Source: Candidatus Woesearchaeota archaeon (GTDB taxonomy: Archaea; Nanobdellota; Nanobdellia; Woesearchaeales; JAFGUC01). From it: a DNA stretch of 64,000 bases. Position numbers and translations under genes: made by a program. Of this stretch, positions 3,294 through 61,507 are shown in pieces (the first letter of the stretch is position 1; each line of letters opens with the position of its first letter). The stretch spans positions 119,213 to 183,212 of the forward strand of contig JAFGUC010000043.1 in the NCBI GenBank assembly GCA_016938695.1, given 5' to 3'. Below the pieces are notes generated by a model. The model was not told where the DNA came from, did not search any database, and was given only the letters and a program-made list of their open reading frames with translations.

Positions 3294-3294
3294 T

Positions 3295-3585: not shown

Positions 3586-3590
3586 TTTAA

Positions 3591-44792: not shown

Positions 44793-45034
44793 TTAAAATT
44801 TATAATTCCATAATATAAAAATACAATCAAAGCGGCACAGACAAAAATCCAAATTAAGACAATCTTAACTTGAGAAGACTTAATAACCGGATAGTCCATT
44901 TCTAAAGCATCATCAATTATATCTTGAGGAAAACCTTTAGCTAACAATTTGTCACGAATATGAGAATTATTATTACCTCTCTTTTTCTCACGCTCCAACT
45001 GTTTAATAAATTTTTTCATATTCATTTCAAACAC
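44789..45034 (-). CDS. Tail-anchored mini-protein, 81 aa; last gene of the giant-ATPase operon
   Basis: The N-terminus is basic, followed by the short helical motif IRDKLLAKGFPQDIIDDALEM and the C-terminal TM helix IVLIWIFVCAALIVFLYYGII. Confidence 0.6.
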   Translation of the reverse strand: MFEMNMKKFIKQLEREKKRGNNNSHIRDKLLAKGFPQDIIDDALEMDYPVIKSSQVKIVLIWIFVCAALIVFLYYGIINFN

Positions 45035-45862
45035 CTATTTAACAACCCTTGAAACAACCATTTTAACCAAATCGGTTTGAACACCATACTTAGACAAGTA
45101 AGAAATTATGTACTCAGAATCAAAACCCAATTCATACATTCTTGAAACATAATTATGAAGAGATTGACCAATAAATAAAAAATTAGGATCTTCTAATCTA
45201 GCAATATCAACCAATTTTTTAGATAACTGTTCAATTTTTGAATTCAATGCTAAAAATCTTGAAAAAATATCTTTTTTTCTTTCAGAAAGTTCTTTCATTG
45301 TAACCATCAAACTACTTTGTGACTCCAACGTCGCAGCACCTTTACTAATAGTCATAAAACTATTATTCAAATAATCAATCTTATCTTTTATCTTGTCAAC
45401 AGAACCCAACAAATTAAAAAAATCATTCCACAATTTTGGAAAATCATTTTTCCTAAAAGTTTTGACTTGTAAAGTGATTTTCAAATATAATCCTTGAGCT
45501 TCATCTAACATTGATTTAGTATCGCCAAACATATCAAGAAATCGCATTTCTTTCATGAAATTTTGCAACACAGGCATCAATGATTGAGCTAAAGGTTCTC
45601 TATCATCCAAAGAATCATATAATCGTTCAATTCGAGAATGTAACCCATTAATACTTCCAAAAAAACCATGCTTATCAAAATTTATTTTGGAAATATTATC
45701 AAAAACCAAATCAGAATATTCTAATTTGCTATGACCTTCTTCATACATTCCACCTAGTTCACCTAAAGATTCTAATAAAGCCTCAGCTCGCTCATAGTCC
45801 GCTGCAATAATTTCATCAAATGAATTTATTCTAGCCTTAATAACCTCTAGTTTTGCATCCAT
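45035..45862 (-). CDS. Alpha-helical cytoplasmic protein, 275 aa
   Basis: The sequence is helix-rich, and the gene overlaps the upstream gene by 1 nt. The C-terminus ELGFDSEYIISYLSKYGVQTDLVKMVV resembles the motif found in the 81-aa protein and at the C-terminus of the giant. Confidence 0.7.
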   Translation of the reverse strand: MDAKLEVIKARINSFDEIIAADYERAEALLESLGELGGMYEEGHSKLEYSDLVFDNISKINFDKHGFFGSINGLHSRIERLYDSLDDREPLAQSLMPVLQNFMKEMRFLDMFGDTKSMLDEAQGLYLKITLQVKTFRKNDFPKLWNDFFNLLGSVDKIKDKIDYLNNSFMTISKGAATLESQSSLMVTMKELSERKKDIFSRFLALNSKIEQLSKKLVDIARLEDPNFLFIGQSLHNYVSRMYELGFDSEYIISYLSKYGVQTDLVKMVVSRVVK

Positions 45863-46800
45863 TAATAAGACCTCATGAATATTAAATCATCATCAACTGG
45901 TTTTTTACTAACTTCTTCCTTCTTAATTTCTGGTTTTTCAACCTTTTTTATTGTTGTATCGACTTCTTCAGTAACTGAAATATTTTTTATCGTATCTTTA
46001 ATAGAGATATCACTTGATAAAGAACTTTCTCGAATTCCAGATTGCTCTAAAACTAATTTAGATTTTTTATCAATCATCTCAGTAAATTTAGTCAATTCTT
46101 CCATACGCCGATTAAGTAATTCTCGTGGAACATAATTCTTCATCTGAAAACCAATCATCTGCTGTTGGGTCGACAATTTCTTAAGAGACGAATCAATCAT
46201 AGATAAACTATTAAAATACTTCAAAGATTGAGTATAATTCTTTTGCATCTCTGTAAAAAAACTTTGCGAACGTTCCAACTCTAAAGATAATTTTGATTCG
46301 ACCTGTAAAACATTTTTCAAAAGATTTTGAACATTTTTATTCAAATCTTGAAGATCATTTACTGAACCAAGACCTAATACTTTTTCGCGAACATCAGAAA
46401 TCTCAGATTTAACTGAATCAACTAAAGAAATAAAAGAATCTATCTTTGCTTCTACAGCATCAATGTGCATGCTTTCTTCTTCAAATTTTTTACTTAAGCC
46501 CATTGGATCAAGAATATTTACTAATTCTTCTGATTTTAATGCACGTGACTCCAATTTCTCAATATATTTTTCCTGTTGCATCAGTTTTCCACGAAGCTCA
46601 CCAATCAAAATATTCATCTTTGAGAACATTTGATTTACTTCATTTCGTTTTTGCTGTTGCGATTCAAACTTCTGTTGCAAGTCAGATATAGCATCAGAGA
46701 TACCTAATGCTTTTGCTTCAAGTTCGGCCCGTATTTGAGACGTCTGCGAAGAAGAATTCTCTTCTGTTGAATTATTATTTTCCTCATCCACCATTCTCAT
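45862..46800 (-). CDS. Coiled-coil protein, 312 aa, with acidic N-terminus and K/E-rich C-terminus
   Basis: Long heptad-like stretches are present (ELEAKALGISDAISDLQQKFESQQQKRNEVNQMF...). The start overlaps the 726-aa gene by 17 nt. Confidence 0.7.
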   Translation of the reverse strand: MRMVDEENNNSTEENSSSQTSQIRAELEAKALGISDAISDLQQKFESQQQKRNEVNQMFSKMNILIGELRGKLMQQEKYIEKLESRALKSEELVNILDPMGLSKKFEEESMHIDAVEAKIDSFISLVDSVKSEISDVREKVLGLGSVNDLQDLNKNVQNLLKNVLQVESKLSLELERSQSFFTEMQKNYTQSLKYFNSLSMIDSSLKKLSTQQQMIGFQMKNYVPRELLNRRMEELTKFTEMIDKKSKLVLEQSGIRESSLSSDISIKDTIKNISVTEEVDTTIKKVEKPEIKKEEVSKKPVDDDLIFMRSY

Positions 46801-48964
46801 GTACCTCTCTTGCCCGCTCTATATCATCACGTAATTCATCCATATCAATTTTTTCAATTGGAACTTTTGAACGTGACATTCCATTTGAAGATAAAACATC
46901 ATCAAGCCTTGTGTTTAATCCTTCAAAATACATATCAACCATTGTAAATGAACCTGAGCATAATTTTTCTTTTGCTAATTTTATTTCAAGATTAAAATCA
47001 AAAACATCCACTCCTTTTTCTTCTAATAGCTCAACATTGTAAATTATTTCTTCTAGTCTATCACTATAACCAATATATTTTTCCAAATCTGCTTCTTTTA
47101 ATCTTCTTGGACTATGAAGTAAAGGTCTAAAATTAACCATAAAAGGCTTACCTTTATTGTACGATGGATTGTTCATCATACCGTTTCCAGTTTCTGCCTT
47201 AACAACACTACGAAGTACTTCTTCACCATATTTTGTTCTAAGACGTTCTAAATCTCCTTCATCTTTAGTTCTCATCTGAACTTCTGTGTTGATGTTTGCC
47301 TTAATCTCTCCTACGAAATCTGACAAAACCTGCGAAATTAATACTAATCCAATTCCCCACTTCCTAAATTCCCTACATGCACGTTCAATTTGAACAAAAC
47401 CTGCACCACTTCCTCCAAACTTAGGAAGAAGCCTGTGAACCTCATCGTAAACCATCAAACTCTTTAAATGAGGATTTTCATCTAGTCCTTGACTGAAAAC
47501 TTGTTTAACCGTACTTGCTACAAAAATATCAATCTCACGAGGTTCTAATTTATGCAATGAAAATACAGTTATTTCTCCTGGATTCATGTGTTTTTTCAAA
47601 TCAATTTTTTGTAAAGCATCTTTAATAACAATAATAGTTCCAGGATAAGATTTTGCATCCTTCTTGTGTAAACCAAACTTAGGATAATAATTATACATTC
47701 CGTTATCATCATTCTTTCTAAAAAATCCAGTCCACTGAGCAGTTGGATCAAAAACAACAACACCTATTTTTTTATCTAATGCGTGTTCAACAACTCCTTG
47801 TGCAGCAACAGTTTTACCACCACCAGTACTTCCTGCAATAATTGTGTGAGTCATCAAATTATCAACATCAAAATAAATATTCTTATCAGTCTCACTAAGA
47901 AGACCTAAATGTACTCGTGAATCTTTTTTCTCTAAAGGTAAAGATTTCAAATATAATGGAAGATGATAACGTTTCTTTCTTTCCTTAGACCAACGATATA
48001 CAAAAATTCCTCCTGCAACTAATCCAAAAGATAACAAAATATAAACATAGTACCAAAGTTTCAATCCAAATAATCGTCTATTCAAAACAAAGATATTCAA
48101 TTTTAATGGAACAACTGAAAAAGTAGATATTGTAGAACCTTGATAAGGATATACTAATTCTCCTGATAAAATATATGTTCCCATATCAAAAGATTCTGGT
48201 ATTTCAAAAACAACAACATCAGAAAAAAATTCTTCAACATGTAAAGAATACTCTTGTGATAATAAATTTTCTCTTGTTTGAGTATCCAATAAAGATATAA
48301 TTAATCGCGAATCAACTGAAACAGGCAAGGGATTATTAACTTGCAATTGAATCTTTAAATCCTCAGTAATAGAACCTTCATTAATTGGATCTAAAATTAA
48401 CTCAATTTGATTAGCCCGACTATGTAACACATCAATTATAACAGGCATTTTATACTTTTTCTCTTGAAAGAAAAAATCAATAAAACCAATATATAAGTTA
48501 GGTATTACAGAATAGTTAGCTTTTATGCTTATTGGAAGGATAACTGTTTCTTGTGGCTTTATAGTGAACATTCCTATCTTTGTTTCTATATTGTTTAAAT
48601 CAAAAGAAATAAATTTTGAAACATTTTTAGATACATTAAAACTAACTTCAATTGATGTATCTAAGGTATTAGTTAACTGTAAATTTTCTGCAAAATATTC
48701 TCCTGGAAATATAACTTTCTTAATTTTACCTGGATAAAATTTAACATGACTATAAGTATCATTAATTTCATCTAAACTGTCTTCTAGAGGTTTTAATAAT
48801 TCACTAGTCTCTTTTCTTAAAATTTCTTGAGACTTAGAAAATTCTTCATCCAGTATCCTTCTAACTAAAGCTTCATTTGCTAAAACAGCTGAAGCTAAAC
48901 TAAGTATTAGTATCAAGAATAATACTAAATTCACCTCTTTTTTATAACAATTTAAAGATTTCAT
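46784..48964 (-). CDS. Bitopic membrane protein, 726 aa: ectodomain of about 290 aa (two Ig/CARDB-like modules), TM helix, cytoplasmic HerA/FtsK-like (DUF87) P-loop ATPase
   Basis: The signal/anchor is LVLFLILILSLASAVLA and the TM helix is LWYYVYILLSFGLVAGGIFVY. Walker A is IIAGSTGGGKTV, followed by VVVFDPTAQW, Walker B (LMVYDEVHRLLP) and FRKWGIGLVLISQVLSDF...NTEVQMRT, matching the HerA/DUF87 pattern. Confidence 0.85.
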   Translation of the reverse strand: MKSLNCYKKEVNLVLFLILILSLASAVLANEALVRRILDEEFSKSQEILRKETSELLKPLEDSLDEINDTYSHVKFYPGKIKKVIFPGEYFAENLQLTNTLDTSIEVSFNVSKNVSKFISFDLNNIETKIGMFTIKPQETVILPISIKANYSVIPNLYIGFIDFFFQEKKYKMPVIIDVLHSRANQIELILDPINEGSITEDLKIQLQVNNPLPVSVDSRLIISLLDTQTRENLLSQEYSLHVEEFFSDVVVFEIPESFDMGTYILSGELVYPYQGSTISTFSVVPLKLNIFVLNRRLFGLKLWYYVYILLSFGLVAGGIFVYRWSKERKKRYHLPLYLKSLPLEKKDSRVHLGLLSETDKNIYFDVDNLMTHTIIAGSTGGGKTVAAQGVVEHALDKKIGVVVFDPTAQWTGFFRKNDDNGMYNYYPKFGLHKKDAKSYPGTIIVIKDALQKIDLKKHMNPGEITVFSLHKLEPREIDIFVASTVKQVFSQGLDENPHLKSLMVYDEVHRLLPKFGGSGAGFVQIERACREFRKWGIGLVLISQVLSDFVGEIKANINTEVQMRTKDEGDLERLRTKYGEEVLRSVVKAETGNGMMNNPSYNKGKPFMVNFRPLLHSPRRLKEADLEKYIGYSDRLEEIIYNVELLEEKGVDVFDFNLEIKLAKEKLCSGSFTMVDMYFEGLNTRLDDVLSSNGMSRSKVPIEKIDMDELRDDIERAREVHENGG
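46810..47971 (-). repeat. Copy A of a duplicated ATPase-domain coding segment of about 1.16 kb (partner at 49515..50683)
   Basis: Long runs are identical at the nucleotide level, e.g. ctatatcatcacgtaattcatccatatcaattttttcaattggaac in both copies. The encoded proteins differ at about 35 of about 370 aligned residues by hand count. Confidence 0.85.
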
Positions 48965-51900
48965 CTATTGAATCCTCAGGCCATTTCTGGCTTTTAAGCT
49001 TTTGTCGTATTTGAGATTCACTTATTCCTTTTTTAATATAACCTTTAACAGTATCACGCATATTTAAAATGTGTTCTGCTGCAATAATATCTGTTTCAAT
49101 ATTCTTTAATTTCTCTTGTGCGTTAGTATAATACCTATCTATATAATTTTTTTGCAAGGCATTAATATCAGAACTGATGTATTTCATATTCAATTCCAAC
49201 ATTTTAGTATTTACACCCGAACGTTTTAGATTATCTACTCGTGATTGAAAATTAGAGTATTGAGTATTAACATCATCCTCTTTAGTTTTTGAAGGAGTTT
49301 CTTTAATTACAGGAATATCAATACTTGATTTTCTAGAGCTAGACTTTGGTTTAGAAACTTCAATATCTGAAAATTCAGAAATCTTAGATAAATTCACAGA
49401 AGACGTTTCCTTAGTACCCTCCAATTTATCTAAAAATTTATTATAGTAATTAGAGCTTCCAGAAGATTCTACCTTCTCAACTTTCTTAACGCCAATAGAA
49501 CCGCCGTGTGCTTTTCTCGCTCGCTCTATATCATCACGTAATTCATCCATATCAATTTTTTCAATTGGAACTTTTTCTCTAGTCAATCCATGTGCTTGAA
49601 GTGATTCATCTAAACGAGATGTCAATCCTTCTAAATACATATCAACCATTGTAAATGAACCTGAAGCTAATTTCTCTTTTGCTAATTTTATTTCAAGATT
49701 AAAATCAAAAACATCAACCTCGTGTTTTTCTAGCAAACCAACATTGTGAATTATTTCTTCTAACTTATTACTATAACCAATATATTTTTCTAAATCTGCT
49801 TCTTTTAATCTTCTTGGACTATGAAGTAAAGGTCTAAAATTAACCATAAATGGTTTACCTTTGTTATATGCTGGATTGTTCATCATACCGTTTCCAGTTT
49901 CTGCCTTAACAACACTACGTAAAACATCTTCACCATACTTCGTTTTCAAACGCTGTAAGTCAGCTTCATCCTTAGTTCTCATTTGAACTTCGGTGTTAAT
50001 GTTTGCCTTAATTTCCCCAACGAAATCTGACAAAACCTGTGAAATTAATACTAATCCAATTCCCCACTTCCTAAATTCCCTACATGCACGTTCAATCTGA
50101 ACAAAACCTGCACCACTTCCACCAAACTTAGGAAGAAGCCTATGAACCTCATCATAAACCATCAGATTCTTTAAATGAGAATCCTCATCCAAACCCTGAC
50201 TGAAAACTTGTTTAACAGTACTTGCTACAAAAATATCAATTTCCCGAGGTTCTAATTTATGCAACGAAAATACAGTTATTTCGCCAGGATTCATGTGTTT
50301 TTTTAAATCAATTTTTTGCAAAGCATCTTCAATAACAACAATAGTTCCAGGATACGACCGAGCATCTTTTCTCCGTAGACCAAATTTAGAATAATAATTA
50401 AACATTCCATTATCATCATTCTTTCTAAAAAATCCAGTCCACTGTGCAGTTGGATCAAAAACAACAACACCAATATTTTTATCTAATGCGTGTTCTACAA
50501 CTCCTTGTGCCGCAACAGTTTTACCACCACCAGTACTTCCTGCAATAATTGTGTGAGTCATTAAATTATCAACATCAAAGAAAACTTCTTTTTCATACTC
50601 ACTAAGTTTTCCTAATGGAACTCTACTTTCTGTTTTAACCAAAGGAAGTTCTTTAAAAAACACAGGTAAATGATATCTTCGAGATTTCTCAACAACAACT
50701 TGTTGAACTTTTACTCCACCTAAAACAACAGTAATCAACAAAATAAATGATAAAATCACCCAAATTGGAACACCATAAATTTCTCTATATAGCAAAGGAT
50801 TTACAATTTCAAATCTATTAACACGTGAAAATTCTTTCACAAATCCATTTAATGCATAAGAAATTTTAGTCTTGACATAATATTCTCCTTCTGAAAGATT
50901 TTGGGGAATTGACAACAAAGAAACATTATTATAATAAGTATTCAAATCAATTAAATTTGAGATCTCATATAATAAATTATTATTCATATCATATACTTCA
51001 AAACCTAAACTAACATTCTTCATCTCATCAGACGGATTATAAAGTTCAATATCTAGACCTAAATTCTTTCCAAGAACAACATAATCTCCAAGAAGTTTAA
51101 CAAACATTTGCAACTGCAAAGAATCTTGTTCAATTACTCTTAGACTAACAGGTAATCGTATTGCATCTGAACCAACAACAATCTCAAAATTACCATTATA
51201 TACGCCCGTTGGATAATCTTTTGGAATATGTAATTTCAATAATAACTGAGATTCTCTCATTGCTTTCAATGTAAACTCAGAAGTATTTATTGTAAAAAAA
51301 TCACTTAAACTATCACTATAACCTAATTTTACTTGTAAATCAACTCCTTGAGAATTTTTCAAAAATAAGGGAATAGAAAGATTCTCACCTTGATATAACA
51401 TCCTAGTAATATCTTCAAAATTTAATCCATATTTTTTATTAAATTCTTCAAATGTCGATAAACTATCCAAATAAGGATCAATTATAGAATGAGTCTCATT
51501 TAAAATTTCCTGCCGACTCTCATTTAATTTTTCTTCTAAAACTTTCTTAAGTACTGACGGATTAATTTGACCACTACTTGTTTGAGTATTCATAGAAATA
51601 AAATTATTTTGATCTATTGGTGGAACATCATGAACTAAAGCAATTGCACTCTGACTAGTAAAATTAAATGGAGAATAAAAATAAGTATTTCCATCAATAT
51701 TGACATATGATCGTTGATCAATTTTTGTCCAAGTTCCCAAACAAGATTCATTATTAAAATCCCACAAATTACATTGATATAAAAACATTTTATTTATATC
51801 ATCAACTACAACATCAGAATAATCAATATAGATTCCTGCTAATGAATTAAAAGGAGAATCAAACCCATAAACTTTGTAAACTTTCCTATCATCAATAGTA

Positions 51901-54900
51901 TAACCATTTACGTCATCTTTCATATCAACATCAATAAAATCAAATACATTACTAACATTATATAAATCAACATTTCTAAGCATCAAATAAATCTTCAAAT
52001 CAATACTTGAGTTTAACGTCAATGAATAATTTCTTCTATGAACTATTTCATCATAAGAACCAAAATCATCCATAGGTACTTCAAACAATGTTTCATCAAC
52101 ATGATAAGGATTTGATAAAATCATATTTCCTTTATATCCATGACCAACTCTATCATTTACCTTACCAAAAATTCTTGTTTTATTATAGACTCCAAACCAC
52201 CAATTATATGTACCCATATGTCTAATATCAGAACCATTTAATACAGACTCATTTGTCGAATAATTATCATATGCAATAAATTTAACACGGTAGTCACCAC
52301 TCACCATATTAAATAACTGAACGGAATAAGTATCATCACCCTGATATGTCAAATTATATCTTTCAGTTACATTAGCACCGGACGCATTTAAATGTGTCAA
52401 ATTAATATATGTTTCATTTACTTGAACGTTATCAAATATTTTAACCCGTAAATTCATATTCTCTCCTGGCTCAATAAAATCAGCATATGGATCTTCAAAC
52501 CAAGGAGGAATTACATCTACATAAATTAAAGAATTATTTTCAAAAGCAAACGCTTCAACATTATTATAAATTGCAGTAAATTTCAAATAATTACTTATTG
52601 GGTTATGCTCTATTTCTGGTGCGGCAAATTGGAAATACCAAATTTCATCAGATGCATTATATGAACTTAAAATAATTTCAGAAGGTTCACCTGAAACATT
52701 TAATACAAAATAAACATTATCACTCAAAGGAAGTCCGTTATAATAAACTCTAGCTTTTGCATTCAAGAGATCTCCCGCATATAAATCTCTATAAGGAGAG
52801 ATTTCAGTTGGATAATCCAAAAATACTCCAAACGGTACAACTTCTAAATCGACAGAAATATTCAATTGATTAGGAGTTATTGTATCGGATACTGCATCAA
52901 AAACAATATATCCTGTAAAATTACCCACTGTTTCATTAGTTGCATAATAAACAGGAATTCTAGTTTCTGACGATTTTAATGCTATTGCAGAAGTATTTTG
53001 GAAAAACAAAAAGTCACTAGTATTAATCGTTGAATTAGTGTTTGGCAAATTTAATATAGTAAAAGGAATGTTTCCGGTTGATTGTGTTTGATAGTTGTAA
53101 ACCGGAATATAACCTAAAAATGCCGTTTGGTTATATGCTATCTTCCTACTTATATGTTCTTCAGTAACAATTCCACCATCAACAATAGACCATTTTGATG
53201 CTCCAACAACAACAGTGATTGGAATTTCAATTGAACAAGCAGAAGAATATCTACAATAGTTTGAATTATTTGAAACATTAACTAACAAAGTAAATTCATA
53301 ATCCCAACTAGTTGCAGGATAATGATAATTTAAAAATTCATATGTGTAATTTGATGAAGGAATATTCATTGTTAAATTAACAATCATATCAGATAATTTT
53401 CCTAAATGAGACAAATTACCAAATGCAGTAATATTAAACCAATCTAAACTCATCAAAGTTGGCGGTGATGTTTGAGGAATAATTGTTAAAGTTATATTTT
53501 CTAAAGGTGTTGTACCAAATGCTTCAATCGTAAAATTTGATATAACCTCATCATGACCTGGAGTTATCAAAGCGTTAATCTCATCAGTATCCGAATGAAC
53601 AACGGTATTATTCAATACATCAATTAAAAATTCTTGTGAAACAACAACATATTCATTACTTGGATTCATCCATCTAAAATAAATTTTTATAGTGTTGTTG
53701 CCAATTGTTGCATTAGGATAAATTTTATAGTTTGATAATCCAAAACAATTACCAGATGCCAAAATATCTCCACAAGAAATACTATAATTTGTATAAGTAA
53801 TGTTAAAAGTTTCAAAATCTGCAGGAACAGTTGTAGATATTGCATTCAAAAATTCTGCCTTACTATTTGTTACATTTATTTGAACTCCTTTCGGTATTGA
53901 AAAAATAAAACTAGTGTTGAACATTGGCGTTAAACCAATATTTGTTGCATTGAATGCAATTGGGAATTCATAGCGATTAGAACGTGTTAAATTATTCAAA
54001 GTCATATTTTGAAATGGATCTATTGTCAAATTTACATATGTAGAATTCAAGATATTAACTATTCCCACTAATTGATGTCCAGTATTTCCAGAACTATCAT
54101 TCGAATAAACATACACATCAAAGACTCCACCAAAAGATGGAACAAATAGTGCAGAAAAATCATAAGTCGTTGCATTGACTGTAACCCTAGTTACTAAAGT
54201 CACATTCTGATCATGATAAGAATTATTAAACCTAAACCAAACTTGTGAAACATTAGATAAATCAGATACTCTTGCATCTAAATCAAACGTAAAATAATTC
54301 ACATATCCTTGAAGCGGCGTAACATTTGCTGAAATAATTACTGGAGGATCTATATCTGTTACATTTGCCACTTTTAATACTGAAGCCAAAGATGGAGTAT
54401 ATGGCTTTGATGTTGAAATTTCACAAAATAAACTTCTAAGACCAGGTACTGATGGTGTCCAAATAAACCGTGCAACTCCAGAACCATTTGTAAGAGATGA
54501 ACCAACAACTGCTGCTTCTTCTTTCAAAGTCACAAGATAATTAGAAATCACTTGATTAGTATCAGAAGTATTCACACCACATAATATTTCAACAGGATAA
54601 CCTAATCCAAAATTATTCGTTGCAGGTCCCACAAAATAAACCTTTGAATAAGTCCAAATTGAATAGTTAATTGTATCATTATAACTTACATAATTTGGAC
54701 CTGAAACTTGTAAAGTCAAATTATGATCACCTAGTGGTTCAGCAGATGAATCAAAATAAAAATTATTTCCTACATTCAACAAAACATAATCATCATACCA
54801 AGTAAACGTAGAACCAATAACAGGACCACAACTATCAACAGCAGTCGCATTCATTAAAATATTTCCAGTACGATAATTAATTGAATCATCCAAAGGACTC

Positions 54901-57900
54901 AAAAAAGTTATAGTAATATTGCTATCCTTTACAGTTATATTCTGCGTTACATTATAATATGATGAATTCCAATAAGGACTACTACCAGTAATAAAAGTTT
55001 TTAATTCTAATTCACCTAAATTAAAAGAACAATTTCCACGAACATCATTAGATATCAAACAATCGCCTGTTGCATTAGTTATATTCCAACCTAAATATTT
55101 ATCATCTAAATAAAAAGTACAATTATAACCTGCAAAATCTAAACTATTATTTTTCCAATCAATTAAATTTGCAACAATTGGTGAAATTTCATTTCGTAAA
55201 ATATAAGAGGTATTAGCTTCTAATTTTACCAAACCCATCAAATCAATTGTTCTATTTTCTGAAAGAACACCTACCTTACCAAATGCTTCAGCATATACTG
55301 ACCAATTATAAGTTCCTGGCACAAGAACCAAACTTGGTTGATATAAACAACTATATGTTCCATTAGAGTGATTAATTTCTGTCAAACATGAGCCTGCTGG
55401 AATATTCCAAGTTATATCAGCATTTAGTATTGGATTTAAGCCATCAAAAACATCAGCAGTTAAATTAATAACAGTCGGATAATAATATGAATCATTATAT
55501 GTTGAAACCATAGTATTATTTTCAGGACTAGTTAAATTGACGTCCATAGGATCAAGCATATCAACATAAACAATAACACTAGAGTTCTGTTCTGATAAAA
55601 CATTTGATCTATTGTAAAATAAACCTGAATTAAAATTCAAACCACAAGTTAAATTATAATTCGCATCTGCAGAAATATTTCCAGAAGTATTCCAATTATA
55701 ATACGCTACGCCATTTTGTGAGACATTAGTAAACATATGTATTCCATCTACATAGAAATTAACATTATATCCTGTTAAATTATAACCTAATTCAGAAATT
55801 GAAACATTTGCATCAGTAACATTACATCGTAAAGTAACAATATCTCCTTCCATATAAGTTCCTAATGCAGGAATATCTGTCGCACCAAATATTTTTCCCC
55901 AACCCCATACTGAAACTGAAACATTATCAACAATTGATGTAATAGAAGGAACAGTTACATTTGCATAAATCATTGATGGTCCTAGCAAAATACTATCATT
56001 TATATTCCAAAAATAAGAATCTTGATTTGACAATGAAACAATAGAATGATTCATCATATCAGAAGAACTATAATAATACCAATCTACATCAAATACAACT
56101 ATATCGTTAAAACAACTATCTTGAACACTAACATTTAACCAAACATCGTCTGTCCTATATTTTCTAACATTTTGCAATGGCGAAACAATATTAAGATTAA
56201 ATGAACTATCTTCTAAAGTAATGTTACCAGTATCATTATTTTTTAAAACATAAAAATCGGAATCTGCCCAAGCCAAAAAAACAGTTACATTATAATCACC
56301 TGATGGAAGTTCTGAATAACAACTAGTATCAGTCATCCAAGTATAATTACAATATCCTGTTGAATTCATACCAGTTGTACCATTATATATTCCATCAATA
56401 TACCAATCACAACCAAAACTAGATAAAATCGGTTGTGAAGAATAATCTAGTAATCTTGCAAAAAGATCAGCATTTGCACTTCGTGCAAAAACTAAATCTT
56501 TAGATACAAAATCTAAACTACCGAATGCTTTAATATTCAATGTATGATTTTCTGACCAAGATGAATTTAATTTGAATTCTTTTACTGCTTTTGCAGACCA
56601 ATTATAAACTCCAGGAACTAAATCATCTTTAGGATCATATAAACAATAGTAAGTTCCATTTCCTACTTCAACAACACCAGTTATACAATCGTCATCACTA
56701 TCACCAAATACATCAAAATAAATTGTTGCATTAGTAATATTACTTCCATCTGAATCTGTAACATGAACTGATAAATTTGCAAATTCAGGATATCCTGAAA
56801 CATTAACTCTACCAACAGATGTTCCATTAGGTAAAAGACTTTCAATAAAAAGTTGTTCAAATAAATCAACACGAACTTCGTGTGTTATTGACGAAATTCC
56901 ACCAAAAACAGTATTAAATTTTAAAGGTTCAGTAGTAGTATTACAAGTGATATTAATTAGTTGATCTGCAGTTATTGATGATATATCCCAAATAATATGC
57001 GCAATACCTGATGCATTAGTATTAGAAGAACCAATCAAATCCGTATCATTATAAAAATAAACAGTTTTATTATATATTGGTGATTGTGCTGAAATTTTTG
57101 GAAGATCATAATCAGTAACATTACAATATAAATCTGCAGAAAGACCATATACTGAACCACTATCTTCTGGATCCATTTCTGAAATATTAACAATACTATG
57201 AATTAAAAAAGTTCCATTAATTTGAGCACGTTCAATATTTCCCCCACCATTATCAATTTCTGCCCACCAACTATAATTACCAGGAATTGAAGTATCTGCA
57301 GGATTATATGTACAATTATAAATTCCACCCGTATAATTTATTACTGGAGTACACTGACCTAAATCTGTTTGAATCAATAAATTCTGCCCTTCAACATCTC
57401 CAGAATCCATCGTTAAATGAACTGAAAATGTAATTTGATTTGGAAGTAAAGATGCTGTTCTATAAACAATAGTATTGTTTGGGGGATAATCATACGTAAA
57501 ATTAATACTATCATGAACAATATAATCTGCAGACGTATAATGATAAGAATTATACCAAGTTCTATTAATCCAAAATGAAAGATAATCATCATCCATAAAC
57601 ATTGGAGTTGCCGGAGGAATAGTAAATCCTCCTATAAAATCATTACAATTAGGAGTATCATTTACAATAACGTCTCTCCAATAAACTGTAAAATTTACAG
57701 AACCACCTAAATTAAAACCATAATCATCTATTACTTGTAAAAAAGTCCAATTTATTTCATTAGGATATTCTGAACTGATTTGTCGACCAACATCTCCACC
57801 AGAAACTGGACTTAGAGTCGGATTTGATGGTATTGTAAAAATTGTACCCCACACATTAACATTAAAAAGACTACTTTGATTTGCAAAATAAGAAGAATCT

Positions 57901-60900
57901 TGCAATGCAAAATACCAACTTGTCGGACCTGGAGTAAAACTAAATCCTGGATCAAAATCTAAAGATAAATAACCAGTCAAATTAGTTGCAGTTAAAGAAA
58001 AGGAACTTGCTCCAACATAAGGTCGTCCTAAAACACCTTCAGAAACATAACTAGATGTATCTAAATCAAAAATTCTAACACTCAATTTTGTTTTTGCTGT
58101 TCCAGATCTATTAACATTAGAATTATTTCCATAAAAATATTCAACACTTGCATAATGTTTTCTAACAATAAAATCATTATAATTTGAACTAATTATTCGT
58201 GGATGATATCCATCAGTATAATTAAAATAATACTCAACCATTCCTATCCAAGATGATTGAACAATTACATCAAATGAAGCATTAGCTCCCGCAGCAATTT
58301 GTTTCCAATCATATCTTGAAAAAGTTGAACTTCCAGGAGTACGTAAATATAAACTAACATTTATCAAATCACTCTCAGCGTCAGCAATTGTAACATTAAA
58401 AGTAATATTTTCTCCCCAAGGTGGATTATAATCCTCTAAATAAACATTTGTTAAATATGGAAAATAATTATTAAACCTATGAACATAATATTGTATACTT
58501 GATGCAGCTGCTAAAGAATTTAATCTAATTTTTACAAAATCAACAATAGTATTATCATCAGTATCTTCAAAACAAGTTCCAAATGTCCTACCATCATGAT
58601 TGAATACATCAAAATCAGGAGAAGGAGAATTACAACTTTCACGATCAATTATCAAAGGAGTAATATCATAAAGTGTCAAACCAGATTTATAATACAAAGT
58701 ATCATTATTAATATTTCCAAGATTAGTTAAATTAAATTCTAAAATAGTATTTGTTAATGCAGATGAAACATTGCTTGTCAAAGTGTAAGTAATATTTGTT
58801 TCAGATGCACTTGAACTACTGCTAGTAGTATAATAAGATTGATAACAACTCTTATAATCACTAGTCCAATAATATGCATTTGGAGGAGTTGTTCCATTTC
58901 CAAGTACAACATAGGGATTTGTTGTAATATCACACATATTCAAAGTATCAGTATAATTTGAATAAAATCTTCCATTAAAAAAACAACTTGACGCCGTCCA
59001 ATCCATAGCCAAATAATTGAATAAAAGATTATCATAAATTTGATCATTATAAAATATCCGTGCATGTTCATAAGGGTAACTCACATTTGCAGTTATATTA
59101 TCAAAACTATAAAACGAACTTTCAATTGCATAATCTAAAACTCCAGTTAAATTATAAACATAGTCTACTGAAAACCCAACAGATATCTGACCATAATTAC
59201 TTGCAGTAACACGAATAGGCACAGAACATAAATTTGAACAAGTTGACAAATATTCAGATAAATTACCTGAAAAGAAAAAACTTTCATTACTGGAAAAAAT
59301 ACCTGGATTTTCAAAAATTAAATCTGCACCAACATAAACACTAACATCTTGAGGATAATTATTTCCATTTTGAATATACCATGCTTTTGCATCGTCTGCA
59401 ACAATTAGTTCATTTCCAGATTGACTATTTACATCATAACTAAGCATATCCATTACTGCTCCAGCACCAGTGTCATAATCCCAAAGTATACCTAGACCAG
59501 TAGAATATATAACAAAATGACCTGCTAAACCACCACCTCCAGAAAAACCAGCAACTAATTCATTTCCTGCAGATGTAGACATAACATCTGAAATTAAAAG
59601 TTTTGATGCACGACTAGTTATATCGTAACTTACAGAATTTAACTTAATAAGATTATTACTCATTATTGAAATTGAAGAACCATTAACAACAGCAATTTCA
59701 TTTAAACTTGAACCGCCATTTAATTCTCCAACTGCTACAGAGTAAGGATTAGTTACAGGCACAGAACGCAAAAACCCAGCTTGATAATCATAGACTCTAG
59801 TAACATCATCACCAGTACTGACAACAATAATTTCATCATTTGCACTAGCATCAACATTTCCACAAGCAACATCTTTAATACCATTTGCAAAACCTAATGC
59901 AGAATTTAATAATGTTCCATCATCATCATAAATAAACAAAGAATTGTCAGTTACAACAGCCAATTCATTCAAAGCATCACCATCTGTTTGCATTAATTCA
60001 ACATCTATAATATCATTCATGGAAGGAGTATCATTCCATTCCGCATAAATTCCCGCATTTGTTGCACGCACAACATAAATAGAATTTTGTGATGTGTAAA
60101 CTACTTCATCTAAAGGAAAACTGGTATTAAATTCTCCAACCAAAACATTTGAAAAAATATCTGCTGATTCAATAGTGTGATTAATATACCACTCAGATGT
60201 TGAATCATTATAACCATAAATTTCTAAAACTCCATCTAAACCAGTAACAATGCTTGTTTGATTCGTGACATTTCCTGCAGAAATACTATAGATATTAGTA
60301 TTCTCTCCTTGTATTGATGTTGAAACAGTACCAGCAATATTAAATCCAGCAACAACACTATCAGATTCTTCAGGCATGTAAAAATTTACAGTTTGATCAA
60401 GTGTACCAGAAACTACAAAGATTTTCTGTGTTTCTGAATCTGTAAAATGATCCTGAATAAATGGAACAGTAAGATTATACAAATTTAATAGATCGCCATC
60501 TTGATTTGCCTCTGCTGCAGCATTGCTTGCAATGACGTAATCAGTACCGTATTGAATTCTTATATGATGCTTTCCGCTTGTTAATTCTTTAACAACCAAA
60601 AAAGTTGTTACATCACAATCCCAAGACGAAATAACATAATTTGAATTTACAAGATTCAATAAATCACTTCTCTCTTCAAGACCACAATACAAAGCATCAA
60701 CACGCAAATCCAAATCAAAAACAGTATCTATCCCTGAAAAAGTAAGATTGTCAATTCCAAGAGTATCAAATGCAATAATCCAATTATGACCTTTAACTGG
60801 ATATGACTGAGTATTATGTAAATAAATAGACGAACCATTAAAATCAACGTCAGAAGTGTAGAAACTAGTCTGCAAACTAGTTAAAAGCAGCAAGATAATT

Positions 60901-60929
60901 CCTGCAACAAGTCCCACCTCTTTTTTCAT
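48942..60929 (-). CDS. Giant fusion protein, 3995 aa: signal/anchor, FG-GAP/VCBS-like repeats, ectodomain of about 3300 aa with Ig-like modules, single TM helix, HerA/FtsK-like (DUF87) ATPase, tail of about 190 aa
   Basis: The frame is 11,988 nt and uninterrupted, with an ATG preceded by an AAGGTGAG RBS. The N-terminus is MKKEVGLVAGIILLLLTSLQTSF. Repeats of the type NE[IL].VV...G are present. The TM helix is IWVILSFILLITVVLGGV (about 50712-50775). After it come SRRYHLP...IIAGSTGGGKTVAAQGVVEHALDKNIGVVVFDPTAQW...MVYDEVHRLLP...GIGLVLISQ. The C-terminus ends KKGISESQIRQKLKSQKWPEDSIDEIFKLL. Confidence 0.9.
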   Translation of the reverse strand: MKKEVGLVAGIILLLLTSLQTSFYTSDVDFNGSSIYLHNTQSYPVKGHNWIIAFDTLGIDNLTFSGIDTVFDLDLRVDALYCGLEERSDLLNLVNSNYVISSWDCDVTTFLVVKELTSGKHHIRIQYGTDYVIASNAAAEANQDGDLLNLYNLTVPFIQDHFTDSETQKIFVVSGTLDQTVNFYMPEESDSVVAGFNIAGTVSTSIQGENTNIYSISAGNVTNQTSIVTGLDGVLEIYGYNDSTSEWYINHTIESADIFSNVLVGEFNTSFPLDEVVYTSQNSIYVVRATNAGIYAEWNDTPSMNDIIDVELMQTDGDALNELAVVTDNSLFIYDDDGTLLNSALGFANGIKDVACGNVDASANDEIIVVSTGDDVTRVYDYQAGFLRSVPVTNPYSVAVGELNGGSSLNEIAVVNGSSISIMSNNLIKLNSVSYDITSRASKLLISDVMSTSAGNELVAGFSGGGGLAGHFVIYSTGLGILWDYDTGAGAVMDMLSYDVNSQSGNELIVADDAKAWYIQNGNNYPQDVSVYVGADLIFENPGIFSSNESFFFSGNLSEYLSTCSNLCSVPIRVTASNYGQISVGFSVDYVYNLTGVLDYAIESSFYSFDNITANVSYPYEHARIFYNDQIYDNLLFNYLAMDWTASSCFFNGRFYSNYTDTLNMCDITTNPYVVLGNGTTPPNAYYWTSDYKSCYQSYYTTSSSSSASETNITYTLTSNVSSALTNTILEFNLTNLGNINNDTLYYKSGLTLYDITPLIIDRESCNSPSPDFDVFNHDGRTFGTCFEDTDDNTIVDFVKIRLNSLAAASSIQYYVHRFNNYFPYLTNVYLEDYNPPWGENITFNVTIADAESDLINVSLYLRTPGSSTFSRYDWKQIAAGANASFDVIVQSSWIGMVEYYFNYTDGYHPRIISSNYNDFIVRKHYASVEYFYGNNSNVNRSGTAKTKLSVRIFDLDTSSYVSEGVLGRPYVGASSFSLTATNLTGYLSLDFDPGFSFTPGPTSWYFALQDSSYFANQSSLFNVNVWGTIFTIPSNPTLSPVSGGDVGRQISSEYPNEINWTFLQVIDDYGFNLGGSVNFTVYWRDVIVNDTPNCNDFIGGFTIPPATPMFMDDDYLSFWINRTWYNSYHYTSADYIVHDSINFTYDYPPNNTIVYRTASLLPNQITFSVHLTMDSGDVEGQNLLIQTDLGQCTPVINYTGGIYNCTYNPADTSIPGNYSWWAEIDNGGGNIERAQINGTFLIHSIVNISEMDPEDSGSVYGLSADLYCNVTDYDLPKISAQSPIYNKTVYFYNDTDLIGSSNTNASGIAHIIWDISSITADQLINITCNTTTEPLKFNTVFGGISSITHEVRVDLFEQLFIESLLPNGTSVGRVNVSGYPEFANLSVHVTDSDGSNITNATIYFDVFGDSDDDCITGVVEVGNGTYYCLYDPKDDLVPGVYNWSAKAVKEFKLNSSWSENHTLNIKAFGSLDFVSKDLVFARSANADLFARLLDYSSQPILSSFGCDWYIDGIYNGTTGMNSTGYCNYTWMTDTSCYSELPSGDYNVTVFLAWADSDFYVLKNNDTGNITLEDSSFNLNIVSPLQNVRKYRTDDVWLNVSVQDSCFNDIVVFDVDWYYYSSSDMMNHSIVSLSNQDSYFWNINDSILLGPSMIYANVTVPSITSIVDNVSVSVWGWGKIFGATDIPALGTYMEGDIVTLRCNVTDANVSISELGYNLTGYNVNFYVDGIHMFTNVSQNGVAYYNWNTSGNISADANYNLTCGLNFNSGLFYNRSNVLSEQNSSVIVYVDMLDPMDVNLTSPENNTMVSTYNDSYYYPTVINLTADVFDGLNPILNADITWNIPAGSCLTEINHSNGTYSCLYQPSLVLVPGTYNWSVYAEAFGKVGVLSENRTIDLMGLVKLEANTSYILRNEISPIVANLIDWKNNSLDFAGYNCTFYLDDKYLGWNITNATGDCLISNDVRGNCSFNLGELELKTFITGSSPYWNSSYYNVTQNITVKDSNITITFLSPLDDSINYRTGNILMNATAVDSCGPVIGSTFTWYDDYVLLNVGNNFYFDSSAEPLGDHNLTLQVSGPNYVSYNDTINYSIWTYSKVYFVGPATNNFGLGYPVEILCGVNTSDTNQVISNYLVTLKEEAAVVGSSLTNGSGVARFIWTPSVPGLRSLFCEISTSKPYTPSLASVLKVANVTDIDPPVIISANVTPLQGYVNYFTFDLDARVSDLSNVSQVWFRFNNSYHDQNVTLVTRVTVNATTYDFSALFVPSFGGVFDVYVYSNDSSGNTGHQLVGIVNILNSTYVNLTIDPFQNMTLNNLTRSNRYEFPIAFNATNIGLTPMFNTSFIFSIPKGVQINVTNSKAEFLNAISTTVPADFETFNITYTNYSISCGDILASGNCFGLSNYKIYPNATIGNNTIKIYFRWMNPSNEYVVVSQEFLIDVLNNTVVHSDTDEINALITPGHDEVISNFTIEAFGTTPLENITLTIIPQTSPPTLMSLDWFNITAFGNLSHLGKLSDMIVNLTMNIPSSNYTYEFLNYHYPATSWDYEFTLLVNVSNNSNYCRYSSACSIEIPITVVVGASKWSIVDGGIVTEEHISRKIAYNQTAFLGYIPVYNYQTQSTGNIPFTILNLPNTNSTINTSDFLFFQNTSAIALKSSETRIPVYYATNETVGNFTGYIVFDAVSDTITPNQLNISVDLEVVPFGVFLDYPTEISPYRDLYAGDLLNAKARVYYNGLPLSDNVYFVLNVSGEPSEIILSSYNASDEIWYFQFAAPEIEHNPISNYLKFTAIYNNVEAFAFENNSLIYVDVIPPWFEDPYADFIEPGENMNLRVKIFDNVQVNETYINLTHLNASGANVTERYNLTYQGDDTYSVQLFNMVSGDYRVKFIAYDNYSTNESVLNGSDIRHMGTYNWWFGVYNKTRIFGKVNDRVGHGYKGNMILSNPYHVDETLFEVPMDDFGSYDEIVHRRNYSLTLNSSIDLKIYLMLRNVDLYNVSNVFDFIDVDMKDDVNGYTIDDRKVYKVYGFDSPFNSLAGIYIDYSDVVVDDINKMFLYQCNLWDFNNESCLGTWTKIDQRSYVNIDGNTYFYSPFNFTSQSAIALVHDVPPIDQNNFISMNTQTSSGQINPSVLKKVLEEKLNESRQEILNETHSIIDPYLDSLSTFEEFNKKYGLNFEDITRMLYQGENLSIPLFLKNSQGVDLQVKLGYSDSLSDFFTINTSEFTLKAMRESQLLLKLHIPKDYPTGVYNGNFEIVVGSDAIRLPVSLRVIEQDSLQLQMFVKLLGDYVVLGKNLGLDIELYNPSDEMKNVSLGFEVYDMNNNLLYEISNLIDLNTYYNNVSLLSIPQNLSEGEYYVKTKISYALNGFVKEFSRVNRFEIVNPLLYREIYGVPIWVILSFILLITVVLGGVKVQQVVVEKSRRYHLPVFFKELPLVKTESRVPLGKLSEYEKEVFFDVDNLMTHTIIAGSTGGGKTVAAQGVVEHALDKNIGVVVFDPTAQWTGFFRKNDDNGMFNYYSKFGLRRKDARSYPGTIVVIEDALQKIDLKKHMNPGEITVFSLHKLEPREIDIFVASTVKQVFSQGLDEDSHLKNLMVYDEVHRLLPKFGGSGAGFVQIERACREFRKWGIGLVLISQVLSDFVGEIKANINTEVQMRTKDEADLQRLKTKYGEDVLRSVVKAETGNGMMNNPAYNKGKPFMVNFRPLLHSPRRLKEADLEKYIGYSNKLEEIIHNVGLLEKHEVDVFDFNLEIKLAKEKLASGSFTMVDMYLEGLTSRLDESLQAHGLTREKVPIEKIDMDELRDDIERARKAHGGSIGVKKVEKVESSGSSNYYNKFLDKLEGTKETSSVNLSKISEFSDIEVSKPKSSSRKSSIDIPVIKETPSKTKEDDVNTQYSNFQSRVDNLKRSGVNTKMLELNMKYISSDINALQKNYIDRYYTNAQEKLKNIETDIIAAEHILNMRDTVKGYIKKGISESQIRQKLKSQKWPEDSIDEIFKLL
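49515..50683 (-). repeat. Copy B of the duplicated ATPase-domain coding segment (partner at 46810..47971)
   Basis: See copy A. Both copies are in frame and sit in the same position relative to the TM helix. Confidence 0.85.
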
Positions 60930-61507
60930 CTACTTCTCACCTTATTGTATGTCGTCCAAATAGTACTAAGACTTTTATCCAACAATACCGATACATCCTT
61001 TATTTTCATTCCTTGAGTATCGACCAAGAACATTACAACATTTTCCAAAACACTGTTTTTTAAAACATAACTAGAAAGGGGCATAACACAAGAAAAATCT
61101 AACTTTAAAGAAAGATTTCGTTTTTGAGAATTTCTATATGTAGTCCAAACACTACTTTCACTTTTTCCCAAATATTGAGAAATTTCCTTATGACGCAAAT
61201 TCAGATTTTCTTTTAAATATTTGACAATTGATTCATATGGACTAAATCCAGAAGCAAAAATAGAAATAGGAATTATTAATTCATTTTTTGAAACCAAAGA
61301 ATTGAACTGAGCGATTAAATCTTTGACATCACCACTCTTTTTTATACGCTCAACAAGAACCTCAAAAAGAAACTTGCCTTCTTCTTCAGAAAGCAAACTA
61401 CAAAACCTTTCAAATTCATGTAACAAGCGTTCATCATTAAACTTCTTAAAACTATCAAGAATTGAAACAGATTCTGTAAAATGACCTAACCCTTTCCCCA
61501 CTTCCAT
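60926..61507 (-). CDS. Double helix-turn-helix (sigma-70 region 4 / LuxR-like) putative transcription regulator, 193 aa
   Basis: Two similar segments are present: SPYESIVKYLKENLNLRHKEISQYLGKSESSVWTTYRNSQKR and VLENVVMFLVDTQGMKIKDVSVLLDKSLSTIWTTYNKVRSR. The stop overlaps the start of the giant gene by 4 nt. Confidence 0.6.
   Translation of the reverse strand: MEVGKGLGHFTESVSILDSFKKFNDERLLHEFERFCSLLSEEEGKFLFEVLVERIKKSGDVKDLIAQFNSLVSKNELIIPISIFASGFSPYESIVKYLKENLNLRHKEISQYLGKSESSVWTTYRNSQKRNLSLKLDFSCVMPLSSYVLKNSVLENVVMFLVDTQGMKIKDVSVLLDKSLSTIWTTYNKVRSR

Follow-up and report, generated by a model that had tools for sequence, protein, structure and literature searches.

Why should two neighboring genes encode proteins whose cytoplasmic parts are very similar but whose extracellular parts can barely be aligned? 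This question is raised by a tandem gene pair on contig JAFGUC010000043.1 of a Candidatus Woesearchaeota archaeon, within a stretch of 64,000 nucleotides (nt; G+C ~30%) that was analyzed as a whole and is called the window here. The upstream gene encodes a giant protein of 3995 amino acids (aa) and the downstream gene a short paralog of 726 aa, each carrying a predicted ATPase motor of the FtsK-HerA type (Table 1). A sequence-only reading of this DNA had offered two main explanations, namely gene conversion or strong constraint on the motor combined with diversification of the exposed part. On the sequence evidence presented below, gene conversion between the two copies can be regarded as established with good confidence. 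We consider it very probable that an old tandem duplication of genes from the SPEARE-like family was followed by an interlocus conversion of ~1.1 kb that covered the motor, and then by purifying selection.

A shared layout with mosaic identity

In the AlphaFold2 model of the short protein (predicted local distance difference test, pLDDT, 84.4), a helix (aa 2-69) is followed by two beta-sandwiches (74-179 and 188-289), a transmembrane (TM) helix (303-330), the ATPase (350-612), and a helical bundle (624-725). The model of giant aa 3100-3995 (pLDDT 80.2) contains the same parts in the same order, with a linker and a helical tail (aa 3881-3994) added at the end. These matching layouts, along with a BLASTP alignment of short aa 30-722 to giant aa 3123-3808 (58% identity overall), bear out the earlier proposal that the short protein repeats the C-terminal architecture of the giant. 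The models and Pfam likewise agree with the assignment to both proteins of a helical segment, two immunoglobulin (Ig)-like modules, a TM helix, and a DUF87 ATPase.

Identity is far from even along the aligned region, as judged from a MAFFT alignment and codon statistics. From the helix through the two Ig-like modules and the TM helix (short aa 30-329), the two proteins share only 20-24% of their residues and the genes 44-49% of their nucleotides, and third-position identity is ~0.43. The little identity under a common layout that had been noticed by eye is therefore real. In the juxtamembrane segment (short aa 330-355) the corresponding values are 58%, 55%, and 0.385, and from the motor to the end of the shared region (short aa 356-722) they rise to 88.6%, 87.6%, and 0.78. 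The mosaic interpretation would have failed if identity were spread evenly along the shared region, but the alignment reveals a sharp step. The maximum-likelihood change point falls at nt 1093 of the short gene, within codon 365 (window position 47872, and 50579 in the giant), with a support interval of nt 1088-1096.

At the DNA level, BLASTN finds a single match between the two genes, which joins short nt 1066-2165 to giant nt 10324-11423 with 87.8% identity over 1104 nt. In window coordinates these segments are 46800-47899 and 49507-50606, and together they constitute the largest repeat in the window. The coordinates proposed earlier (46810-47971 and 49515-50683) correctly delimit the coding segments from RYHLP to DIERAR, although the DNA similarity begins ~100 nt further in. 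Differences between these segments had been counted by hand as about 35 in about 370 residues, and the actual count is 49 in 388. The impression that few changes fall in a central stretch of about 115 residues was sound, since the best window of this length (short aa 449-563) contains only three.

Calling the ATPase halves near-identical was nevertheless an overstatement, because 132 of the 1086 aligned bases in the tract (~12%) differ. Most of these differences are synonymous, and both reading frames are intact. These same observations leave next to no probability for the idea that the duplicated segment is an artefact of assembly, in favor of which nothing could be found for the window. The long identical DNA runs that had been pointed out are also weak evidence. 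The longest run in the tract is 59 nt, and codon permutation reaches that length with P = 0.15. Thus, the clustering of identical runs that would be a sign of recent or repeated conversion is not significant in the window tract.

Synonymous sites reveal a difference in age

One alternative to conversion involves no recombination. In this scenario the two genes have diverged evenly since an old duplication, and very strong purifying selection together with codon bias has kept the motor similar. No other part is as well conserved throughout the family, and the ratio of nonsynonymous to synonymous change (dN/dS) in the ATPase core is indeed very low (0.06-0.09), compared with 0.26 in the C-terminal bundle. 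The synonymous sites argue otherwise. Upstream of the break, identical residues share their codon in 39 of 76 cases (0.51), which is close to the 0.53 that codon usage produces by chance. Within the tract they do so in 251 of 312 cases (0.80, against 0.57 by chance), and the two parts differ significantly (Fisher p = 7e-7). Synonymous divergence (dS) in the tract is ~0.46, a level that is not saturated, whereas synonymous sites are saturated in the ectodomain, TM, and juxtamembrane parts.

The same conclusion emerges from the nearest orthologs, a giant-type protein (P0003) and a short-type protein (P0002) that are introduced more fully below. In the motor, the window copies have a third-position identity of 0.79, but the giant and P0003 reach only 0.46 and the short protein and P0002 only 0.35 (range among orthologs, 0.35-0.47). 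Orthologous ATPases that are 73% identical in protein sequence are therefore saturated at third positions, which leads us to reject strong constraint alone. The tract and the part upstream of it differ in age, and therefore constraint at the protein level cannot be the cause. Given also that the topology of the tree switches at the break, even divergence without recombination is extremely unlikely.

Both copies have been under purifying selection since the event, because dN/dS across the tract is 0.15. Diversification of the ectodomain, the other half of the earlier proposal, is plausible because the orthologs are also only 32-51% identical there, although dS is saturated in this part and no meaningful dN/dS can be given.

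Orthologs change partners at the boundary

A search of 5.8 billion proteins returned only two close relatives of the window pair, P0002 (770 aa) and P0003 (a 684-aa fragment). P0003 is encoded by a metagenome contig (L105) that carries a giant-type gene with a tail, followed by a short-type gene. The giant-type part consists of the end of an ectodomain that is interrupted by a run of Ns, and then a TM helix, an ATPase, and a tail whose terminus (ETIDEIFESL) resembles that of the window giant (DSIDEIFKLL). The short-type gene begins 56 nt after the giant-type gene, and its N-terminal helical segment shares the sequence EEFNKSQEIL with the short protein. Thus, the comparison with orthologous loci that the sequence-only reading had called for uncovers the same tandem in another lineage, with relationships that depend on the segment examined.

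Outside the tract, each copy is most closely related to its counterpart of the same type. The upstream open reading frame (ORF) of L105 is 37% identical to the giant over 138 aa (E 4e-31) and 25% identical to the short protein (E 2e-5), and the first 104 aa of P0003 give values of 52% and 31%, respectively. Conversely, the downstream gene of L105 is 26% identical to the giant and 40% identical to the short protein, and it shares 59% of its residues with P0002. The unconverted part of the short gene is closest to short-type P0002 (32%, E 1e-49) and to this downstream gene, and the giant-type tail is common only to the giant and P0003 (29%).

The switch is clearest when the same pairs are compared on the two sides of the break. 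For the region equivalent to short aa 252-331, identity is 51% between the giant and P0003 and 35% between the short protein and P0002, compared with 21% between the window copies, 21% between P0003 and P0002, and 22-25% for the other cross pairs. For the region equivalent to short aa 365-722, both orthologous pairs are at 73% and the other cross pairs at 72-74%, but the window copies, with 36 differences in the tract, reach 90% and P0003 and P0002 reach 79%. In a neighbor-joining tree of the motor, bootstrap support is 100% for grouping the short protein with the giant, 99.7% for grouping P0002 with P0003, and 0% for the orthologous groupings. The source organisms of P0002 and P0003 differ in G+C content (46% and 33%), yet these two motors resemble one another more than they do the window pair, and this pattern suggests that homogenization of the motor may have occurred on their side as well. 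The genes are orthologs by type outside the tract and sisters inside it. The duplicated pair was therefore already in place, in the same order, when this lineage and that of L105 separated, and homogenization of the motor came later.

This evidence also bears on two other origins for the mosaic. The shared domain layout, the tandem arrangement, and the common orientation could mean that the short gene is a recent copy of the entire 3' part of the giant gene, with the exposed domains diverging afterward under diversifying selection. However, identical residues in the ectodomain and juxtamembrane parts share codons only at the chance level, P0002 and the gene downstream on L105 are orthologs of the short ectodomain in particular, and the L105 contig already has the tandem. 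Such a recent origin is accordingly very unlikely.

Alternatively, the DNA that replaced one of the motors could have come not from the neighboring gene but from a third source, for which an unseen paralog and a related strain are the candidates. Genomes of DPANN archaea often hold several copies, as in one metagenome-assembled genome (MAG) that includes two of our loci (L044 and L064) or in Nanopetramus SG9 with four (PMC6642349). We nevertheless judge this source unlikely. The window copies are mutually closest by a wide margin (90% identity, versus no more than 75% to any other protein searched), and no third family copy is present in the window. Closer relatives were not found among metagenome contigs (best 57%) or genome contigs (best ~50%) either.

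Probable conversion of motors at other loci

Among 152 distinct places where the family occurs in species-level genomes and metagenomes, four (L077, L052, L028, and L043) carry a second copy within 10 kb, and in three of these (L077, L052, and L028) the motors of the neighboring copies are highly identical. The most extreme case is a tandem pair encoding 660-aa and 1180-aa proteins (L077:10310-16364) on a 910-kb scaffold of a Woesearchaeota MAG (JAVZCZ010000001, 754.8-760.9 kb). Here, 1156 nt are 100% identical from just after the TM helix to before the C-terminal bundle, and both flanks are saturated. This tract could represent a very recent conversion or, in part, the collapse of near-identical copies by the assembler; although an assembly artefact is not credible for the window, it is conceivable for L077. 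The 660-aa copy of this locus seemingly lacks a signal peptide and one Ig module.

The second case (L052) is a tandem pair with 82% identity over 1075 nt, within which ~180 nt match at 100%; the two copies are sisters with 86% bootstrap support. A patchwork of this kind is typical of repeated events, and clustering of identical runs is found in both L052 and L077. The third locus (L028) has copies ~10 kb apart whose motor DNA is 85.5% identical. The tandem pair of L043 serves as the counterexample, because its copies are 71% identical (68% in aa sequence), are not sisters, and are therefore unconverted. Breakpoints differ between the loci, as expected for independent events.

The features of the window pair agree well with descriptions of interlocus gene conversion in tandem paralogs (PMC3966223; PMC3728101), which include a homogenized segment, divergent flanks, sharp breakpoints, and phylogenies that differ between segments. 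Both a synonymous discontinuity with a localized breakpoint and a phylogenetic incongruence with respect to orthologs are present. The mechanism itself is ordinary, and the novelty lies solely in the family concerned and in how the process recurs at several DPANN loci. Gene conversion, one of the two explanations offered at the outset, is thus supported by the discontinuity at synonymous sites and by the switch in topology at the break.

Several points weigh against this interpretation or limit it. Orthology was established from two short contigs (L105 of 2.9 kb and L106 of 2.6 kb) whose source organisms show an identity of only ~73% in the motor, and no closer genome was found. The identical runs in the tract are no longer than chance would produce, as noted above, which fits one fairly old event and not ongoing conversion. 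Donor and recipient cannot be distinguished because both copies are equidistant from the orthologs. The 100% figure for L077 could be inflated by assembler collapse. Finally, the function of the proteins is wholly inferred, and no substrate, channel partner, or component of a type IV secretion system (T4SS) is found beside the genes.

Membership of the SPEARE-like family

The sequence-only reading had correctly recognized a DUF87 ATPase, but not that the proteins belong to a published family of giants. The SPEARE proteins of nanohaloarchaea were reported to reach 8553 aa, most of which is extracytoplasmic, with a TM helix near the C-terminus (Hamm et al. 2019; PMC6642349). The intracellular part was described as the most conserved and was then read as ResIII. 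Several versions per genome were noted, including one of 655 aa, two with adjacent locus tags, and four in Nanopetramus SG9, in which SPEARE 2 and 3 are adjacent, and related sequences were listed in Woese-, Aenigm-, Micr-, and Altiarchaeota (PMC6642349). In a later study the architecture was reinterpreted as a signal peptide, propellers, ~75 Ig-like domains, a TM helix, a VirB4/TraG-like ATPase, and a coiled-coil tip. Directly downstream, the authors observed another ATPase gene of the VirB4 family, and they proposed a secretion "straw" (La Cono et al. 2023; PMC10266531).

One of the loci that we compared (L024) encodes RLG14629.1, which is listed as a SPEARE match in PMC6642349. The giant aligns with this protein over 1295 columns (31% identity, E 1e-170), and the short protein aligns with it over aa 55-723 (39%, E 3e-149). 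Because of this direct homology, the window pair is assigned by sequence to the SPEARE-like family. The defining parts of the architecture are also found, namely an extracytoplasmic bulk, a single TM helix near the C-terminus, and a cytoplasmic C-terminal ATPase followed by a coiled-coil tip. Laminin-G, a SPEARE feature in Hamm et al. (2019), was not detected, as Pfam yields only a weak Filamin match in the giant and no Laminin_G at E <= 0.01, and the modules that are present are beta-sandwiches of the adhesion type; however, La Cono et al. (2023) did not treat this domain as defining (PMC10266531).

Other likenesses to the nanohaloarchaeal proteins include an N-terminal signal, a huge adhesion-type ectodomain, a conserved cytoplasmic ATPase with a coiled-coil tail, the presence of several sizes per genome (including ~650-720 aa), and a cytoplasmic part that is most conserved beside a variable ectodomain. 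There are also differences. The window derives from a low-GC, non-halophilic DPANN lineage with its best matches in Woesearchaeota and Nanoarchaeota, and the giant has no Pfam-detected laminin-G, protease, or toxin-like domain. In addition, its downstream ATPase is a paralog of the same architecture, and not a VirB4 protein with a CagE/TrbE N-domain. Cultured nanohaloarchaeal species were absent from the best 80 matches of a scan with the family alignment, and a scan with a single protein for a nanohaloarchaeal link returned only its own locus.

The distribution of the family extends well beyond nanohaloarchaea, with at least 550 loci in GTDB species genomes. All of them belong to DPANN lineages or Altiarchaeota, and the lineages represented are Woese-, Pace-, Nano-, Aenigm-, Micr-, and Altiarchaeota. 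Family proteins fall into size classes of ~770 aa, ~1250-1400 aa, and 3000 to >4100 aa.

Two types of helical proteins recur beside the ATPase genes. Homologs of the 312-aa coiled-coil protein encoded downstream of the short gene (Table 1) lie downstream of the ATPase gene and on its strand in 56 loci across DPANN archaea, including beside RLG14629.1, and share a conserved motif around G67/R70 (GELRG), but this protein family has no Pfam, NCBIfam, or PDB match. In 41 loci, a helical protein of 165-280 aa with the motif ARKxGKD[PT], which matches no known family, is encoded directly downstream of the ATPase gene. Its profile matches the tail of the window giant (E 5e-8) and also the tails of nanohaloarchaeal giants (noted for L024, L025, and L063). 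By sequence, this helical module is predicted to be subject to fusion and fission, being a separate gene in those 41 loci and a fused tail in giants. It is absent from the short paralog, and the window has no free-standing copy.

A membrane-anchored motor of the FtsK-HerA superfamily

From N- to C-terminus, the giant comprises a signal or anchor helix, a ~3360-aa ectodomain rich in N-glycosylation sites, a TM helix, a HerA/VirB4-like ATPase, a helical bundle, a disordered linker, and the helical tail. Hydrophobic segments occupy aa 5-23 and 3386-3404, and the sequence after the TM helix is rich in K and R. The ectodomain (window 50766-60860) contains 158 N-x-S/T sequons where 58 are expected (2.7x), versus one in the 580-aa cytoplasmic part, a difference that supports an outside location for the ectodomain of the giant. 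Such enrichment implies that the giant ectodomain would be heavily N-glycosylated; the short ectodomain has only four sequons. The analysis shows both proteins to be type-I membrane proteins with a beta-sandwich-rich ectodomain, one TM helix, and a cytoplasmic P-loop ATPase. Foldseek matches the ectodomain modules to tandem Ig-like proteins (RbmA, transglutaminase barrels, and ASH domains).

For both motors, the best Pfam match is DUF87/HerA central, followed by HerA_C and marginal matches to TrwB_AAD_bind (near threshold), FtsK, and ResIII. A sequence profile search of the PDB is led by Sulfolobus HerA (4d2i, E 5.5e-12), and then come anti-phage HerAs, YjgR, and weakly IcmO/DotL. Foldseek retrieves HerA structures (4d2i and HerA-NurA, E ~1e-11) as well as the TcpA coupling protein (6o1w). 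Walker A (GSTGGGKT) and Walker B (LMVYDE) motifs are intact in both proteins, and so both motors are predicted to be active, as is likely on this sequence evidence. With these motifs located in a RecA-like HerA/FtsK/VirB4 fold, the motor is classified from sequence and model as a membrane-anchored member of the FtsK-HerA superfamily, with the HerA and VirB4 clades as its nearest relatives.

None of the superfamily members compared is an exact counterpart. HerA is the best match to the ATPase core in both sequence and fold (Sulfolobus 4d2i and anti-phage HerA), but the window motor has no N-terminal HAS barrel and is instead anchored by a TM helix ~20 residues before the ATPase. Its helicase_HerA score is 30 bits against an NCBIfam cut-off of 970, and NurA does not occur among the neighbors, which are coiled-coil proteins, a helix-turn-helix (HTH) protein, and glycosyltransferases. 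Type IV coupling proteins (TrwB/VirD4/TraG and TcpA) and FtsK/SpoIIIE share an N-terminal membrane anchor followed by an FtsK-HerA motor, but their matches cover little beyond the P-loop region and they have no counterpart of the ectodomain. No relaxase or other T4SS genes lie beside the window genes. Likewise, a VirB4 or T4SS ATPase assignment is not supported, as PF03135 is absent and TraC and TrbC score no more than 21 bits against cut-offs of 567-800. An anti-phage HerA system (Sir2-HerA, DUF4297-HerA, or MADS) was considered and rejected because comparison with PADLOC models gave only generic HerA/mad8 homology of up to 60 bits and because the neighborhood has no gene for an effector.

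In function, the closest parallel to such a pair of motors is offered by CedB and CedD, two paralogous TM-anchored HerA-clade ATPases that act together and are jointly needed for DNA import in Sulfolobales (PMC11868833). CedD is also the top NCBIfam match, although at 36-39 bits against a cut-off of 600. Moreover, the window pair has a huge ectodomain and no VirB4-like N-domain, and a multi-TM CedA/VirB6-like channel gene is not adjacent.

Gene layout and neighboring features

The two ATPase genes belong to a minus-strand series of overlapping or abutting genes for an HTH protein, the giant, the short paralog, and two coiled-coil proteins (Table 1). The start of the short gene precedes the stop codon of the giant by 23 nt, and the two genes are probably co-transcribed. 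The unconverted part of the short gene encodes the signal or anchor and helix (aa 1-69), the two beta-sandwiches (74-289), the TM helix (303-330), and the juxtamembrane RYHLP segment (332-364). The homologous part of the giant contains a helix, two beta-sandwiches, a TM helix (3389-3416), and a juxtamembrane segment.

Table 1. Features of the SPEARE-like gene pair and adjoining genes, in window coordinates
Feature	Coordinates	Strand	Basis
Helix-turn-helix protein gene, 193 aa, stop overlapping the start of the giant	60926..61507	-	Pfam Sigma70_r4_2 / HTH_23
Giant gene, 3995 aa, SPEARE-like	48942..60929	-	ORF; Pfam DUF87
Unconverted membrane-proximal part of giant, aa ~3124-3450	50580..51560	-	AlphaFold2 model; closest to L105/P0003
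Converted tract in giant gene, codons ~3451-3808	49507..50579	-	Coordinates from ungapped alignment
Giant-only C-terminal tail, aa 3810-3995, disordered linker and helical/coiled-coil module	48945..49502	-	AlphaFold2; profile match E 5e-8
Short paralog gene, 726 aa	46784..48964	-	Layout of the last ~690 residues of the giant before the tail
Unconverted 5' part of short gene	47873..48964	-	20-24% aa identity to giant; third-position identity ~0.4
Converted tract in short gene, codons ~365-722, ATPase core and C-terminal helical bundle	46800..47872	-	BLASTN, change point, codons, dS
Coiled-coil partner gene (proposed), 312 aa, start overlapping the end of the short gene	45862..46800	-	Homologs downstream in 56 loci
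Second coiled-coil gene, 275 aa, abutting the 312-aa gene	45035..45862	-	Weakly conserved (4 loci)

The HTH protein is sigma-70 region 4-like, and a 33%-identical homolog occupies the equivalent position upstream of a giant in another locus (L050:1672-2223). It may be a dedicated regulator. By eye, a similar small helical motif can be seen in three sequences, namely the last ~25 residues of the giant (KWPEDSIDEIFKLL; window 48945-49030), the N-terminal part of an 81-aa protein (KGFPQDIIDDALEM; window 44789-45034), and the C-terminus of the 275-aa protein (LGFDSEYIISYLSKYG; window 45035-45862), all on the minus strand. A weak RecX_HTH1 match (E 0.005) was also obtained. The short product is present in the protein database (P0001) with no encoding contig on record, and the giant is absent from the protein-database matches, which looks like a quirk of coverage and not biology.

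Beside the operon lies a glycosyltransferase cluster (window 39004-44021) comprising a gene for a Bac_transf sugar transferase and three genes of the GT1 type, of which two are 70% identical to each other over 505 nt (39613-40105 and 41936-42428). Further very large putative surface proteins (1185, 3008, 1079, and 1473 aa) are encoded in a second block on the minus strand, at 6693-27035. These proteins have CarboxypepD_reg, Big_13, and TSP3 domains, or none; they carry no ATPase and no detectable similarity to the ectodomain of the giant. The DNA between the two surface-protein blocks includes, at 28950-32446, a gene for a prepilin-peptidase-like protein (Peptidase_A24) and a pair of adjacent radical-SAM genes, one of which encodes a SPASM domain. 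An 87-nt direct repeat of 83% identity (3490-3576 and 3840-3926) lies in or near two small ORFs. A search of the window for tRNA genes found none.

Implications for SPEARE-like proteins

The history that we favor begins with an old tandem duplication, and each copy has an ortholog of its own type, in giant-then-short order, on a related contig. After the lineages split, ~1.1 kb spanning the ATPase core and the C-terminal bundle was copied from one paralog to the other by non-reciprocal homologous recombination, in a tract that runs from codon ~365 of the short gene and codon ~3451 of the giant to the end of the short gene. Both copies have since drifted apart under purifying selection. The motor may be the only part converted because no other part is still similar enough in its DNA for recombination, and the ectodomain variants are probably held apart by selection.

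If HerA, VirB4, and coupling-protein ATPases are a guide, the motors probably assemble into rings beneath the membrane. Such rings would power a contact-dependent apparatus for transfer or attachment whose ectodomains reach the host cell, and the downstream coiled-coil proteins are proposed as partners.

The sequence-only reading had also raised the prospect of a hetero-oligomeric ring. In addition to gene conversion, and not as an alternative to it, a mixed ring of giant and short ATPases could select for homogenization of the motor. The genes overlap and are likely to be co-expressed, catalytic motifs are kept in both copies, and high motor identity between neighbors recurs in the three loci described above. 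Paired membrane-anchored ATPases of the HerA clade have a precedent in CedB and CedD (PMC11868833), and nanohaloarchaeal giants have a second VirB4-family ATPase gene downstream (PMC10266531). We consider this addition rather unlikely, and the data do not call for it. As a family-wide rule it is weakened, because most family loci have a single copy, with two copies in only 4 of 152 places, and the L043 pair remains unconverted at 68% aa identity. Furthermore, CedB and CedD without their TM segments formed no hetero-oligomers in vitro (PMC11868833), and conversion of the most similar segment is expected even in the absence of selection. Mixed rings are nonetheless a concrete hypothesis that arises from the conversion pattern. 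If it is true, then one membrane machine would carry ectodomains of two lengths, and conversion would be retained for compatible ring interfaces, as a rule for tandem SPEARE-like pairs across DPANN archaea.

The family was already known from the published SPEARE proteins, and gene conversion is an ordinary process. What appears to be new is segmental conversion of the motor between tandem SPEARE-like copies, and its recurrence. We found no paper on gene conversion or concerted evolution of the motor in this family, and nothing on DUF87 or FtsK/HerA ATPases in DPANN archaea under those terms. One consequence is that gene orthology cannot be read from trees of the conserved cytoplasmic domain, the approach taken in the 2019 report (PMC6642349). 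Repeated homogenization of the motor, with ectodomains that stay separate, also points to the motor as an interchangeable chassis and to the ectodomain as the part that would provide specificity. SPEARE-like giants are prime candidates for the machinery by which DPANN archaea may attach to and exploit their hosts.

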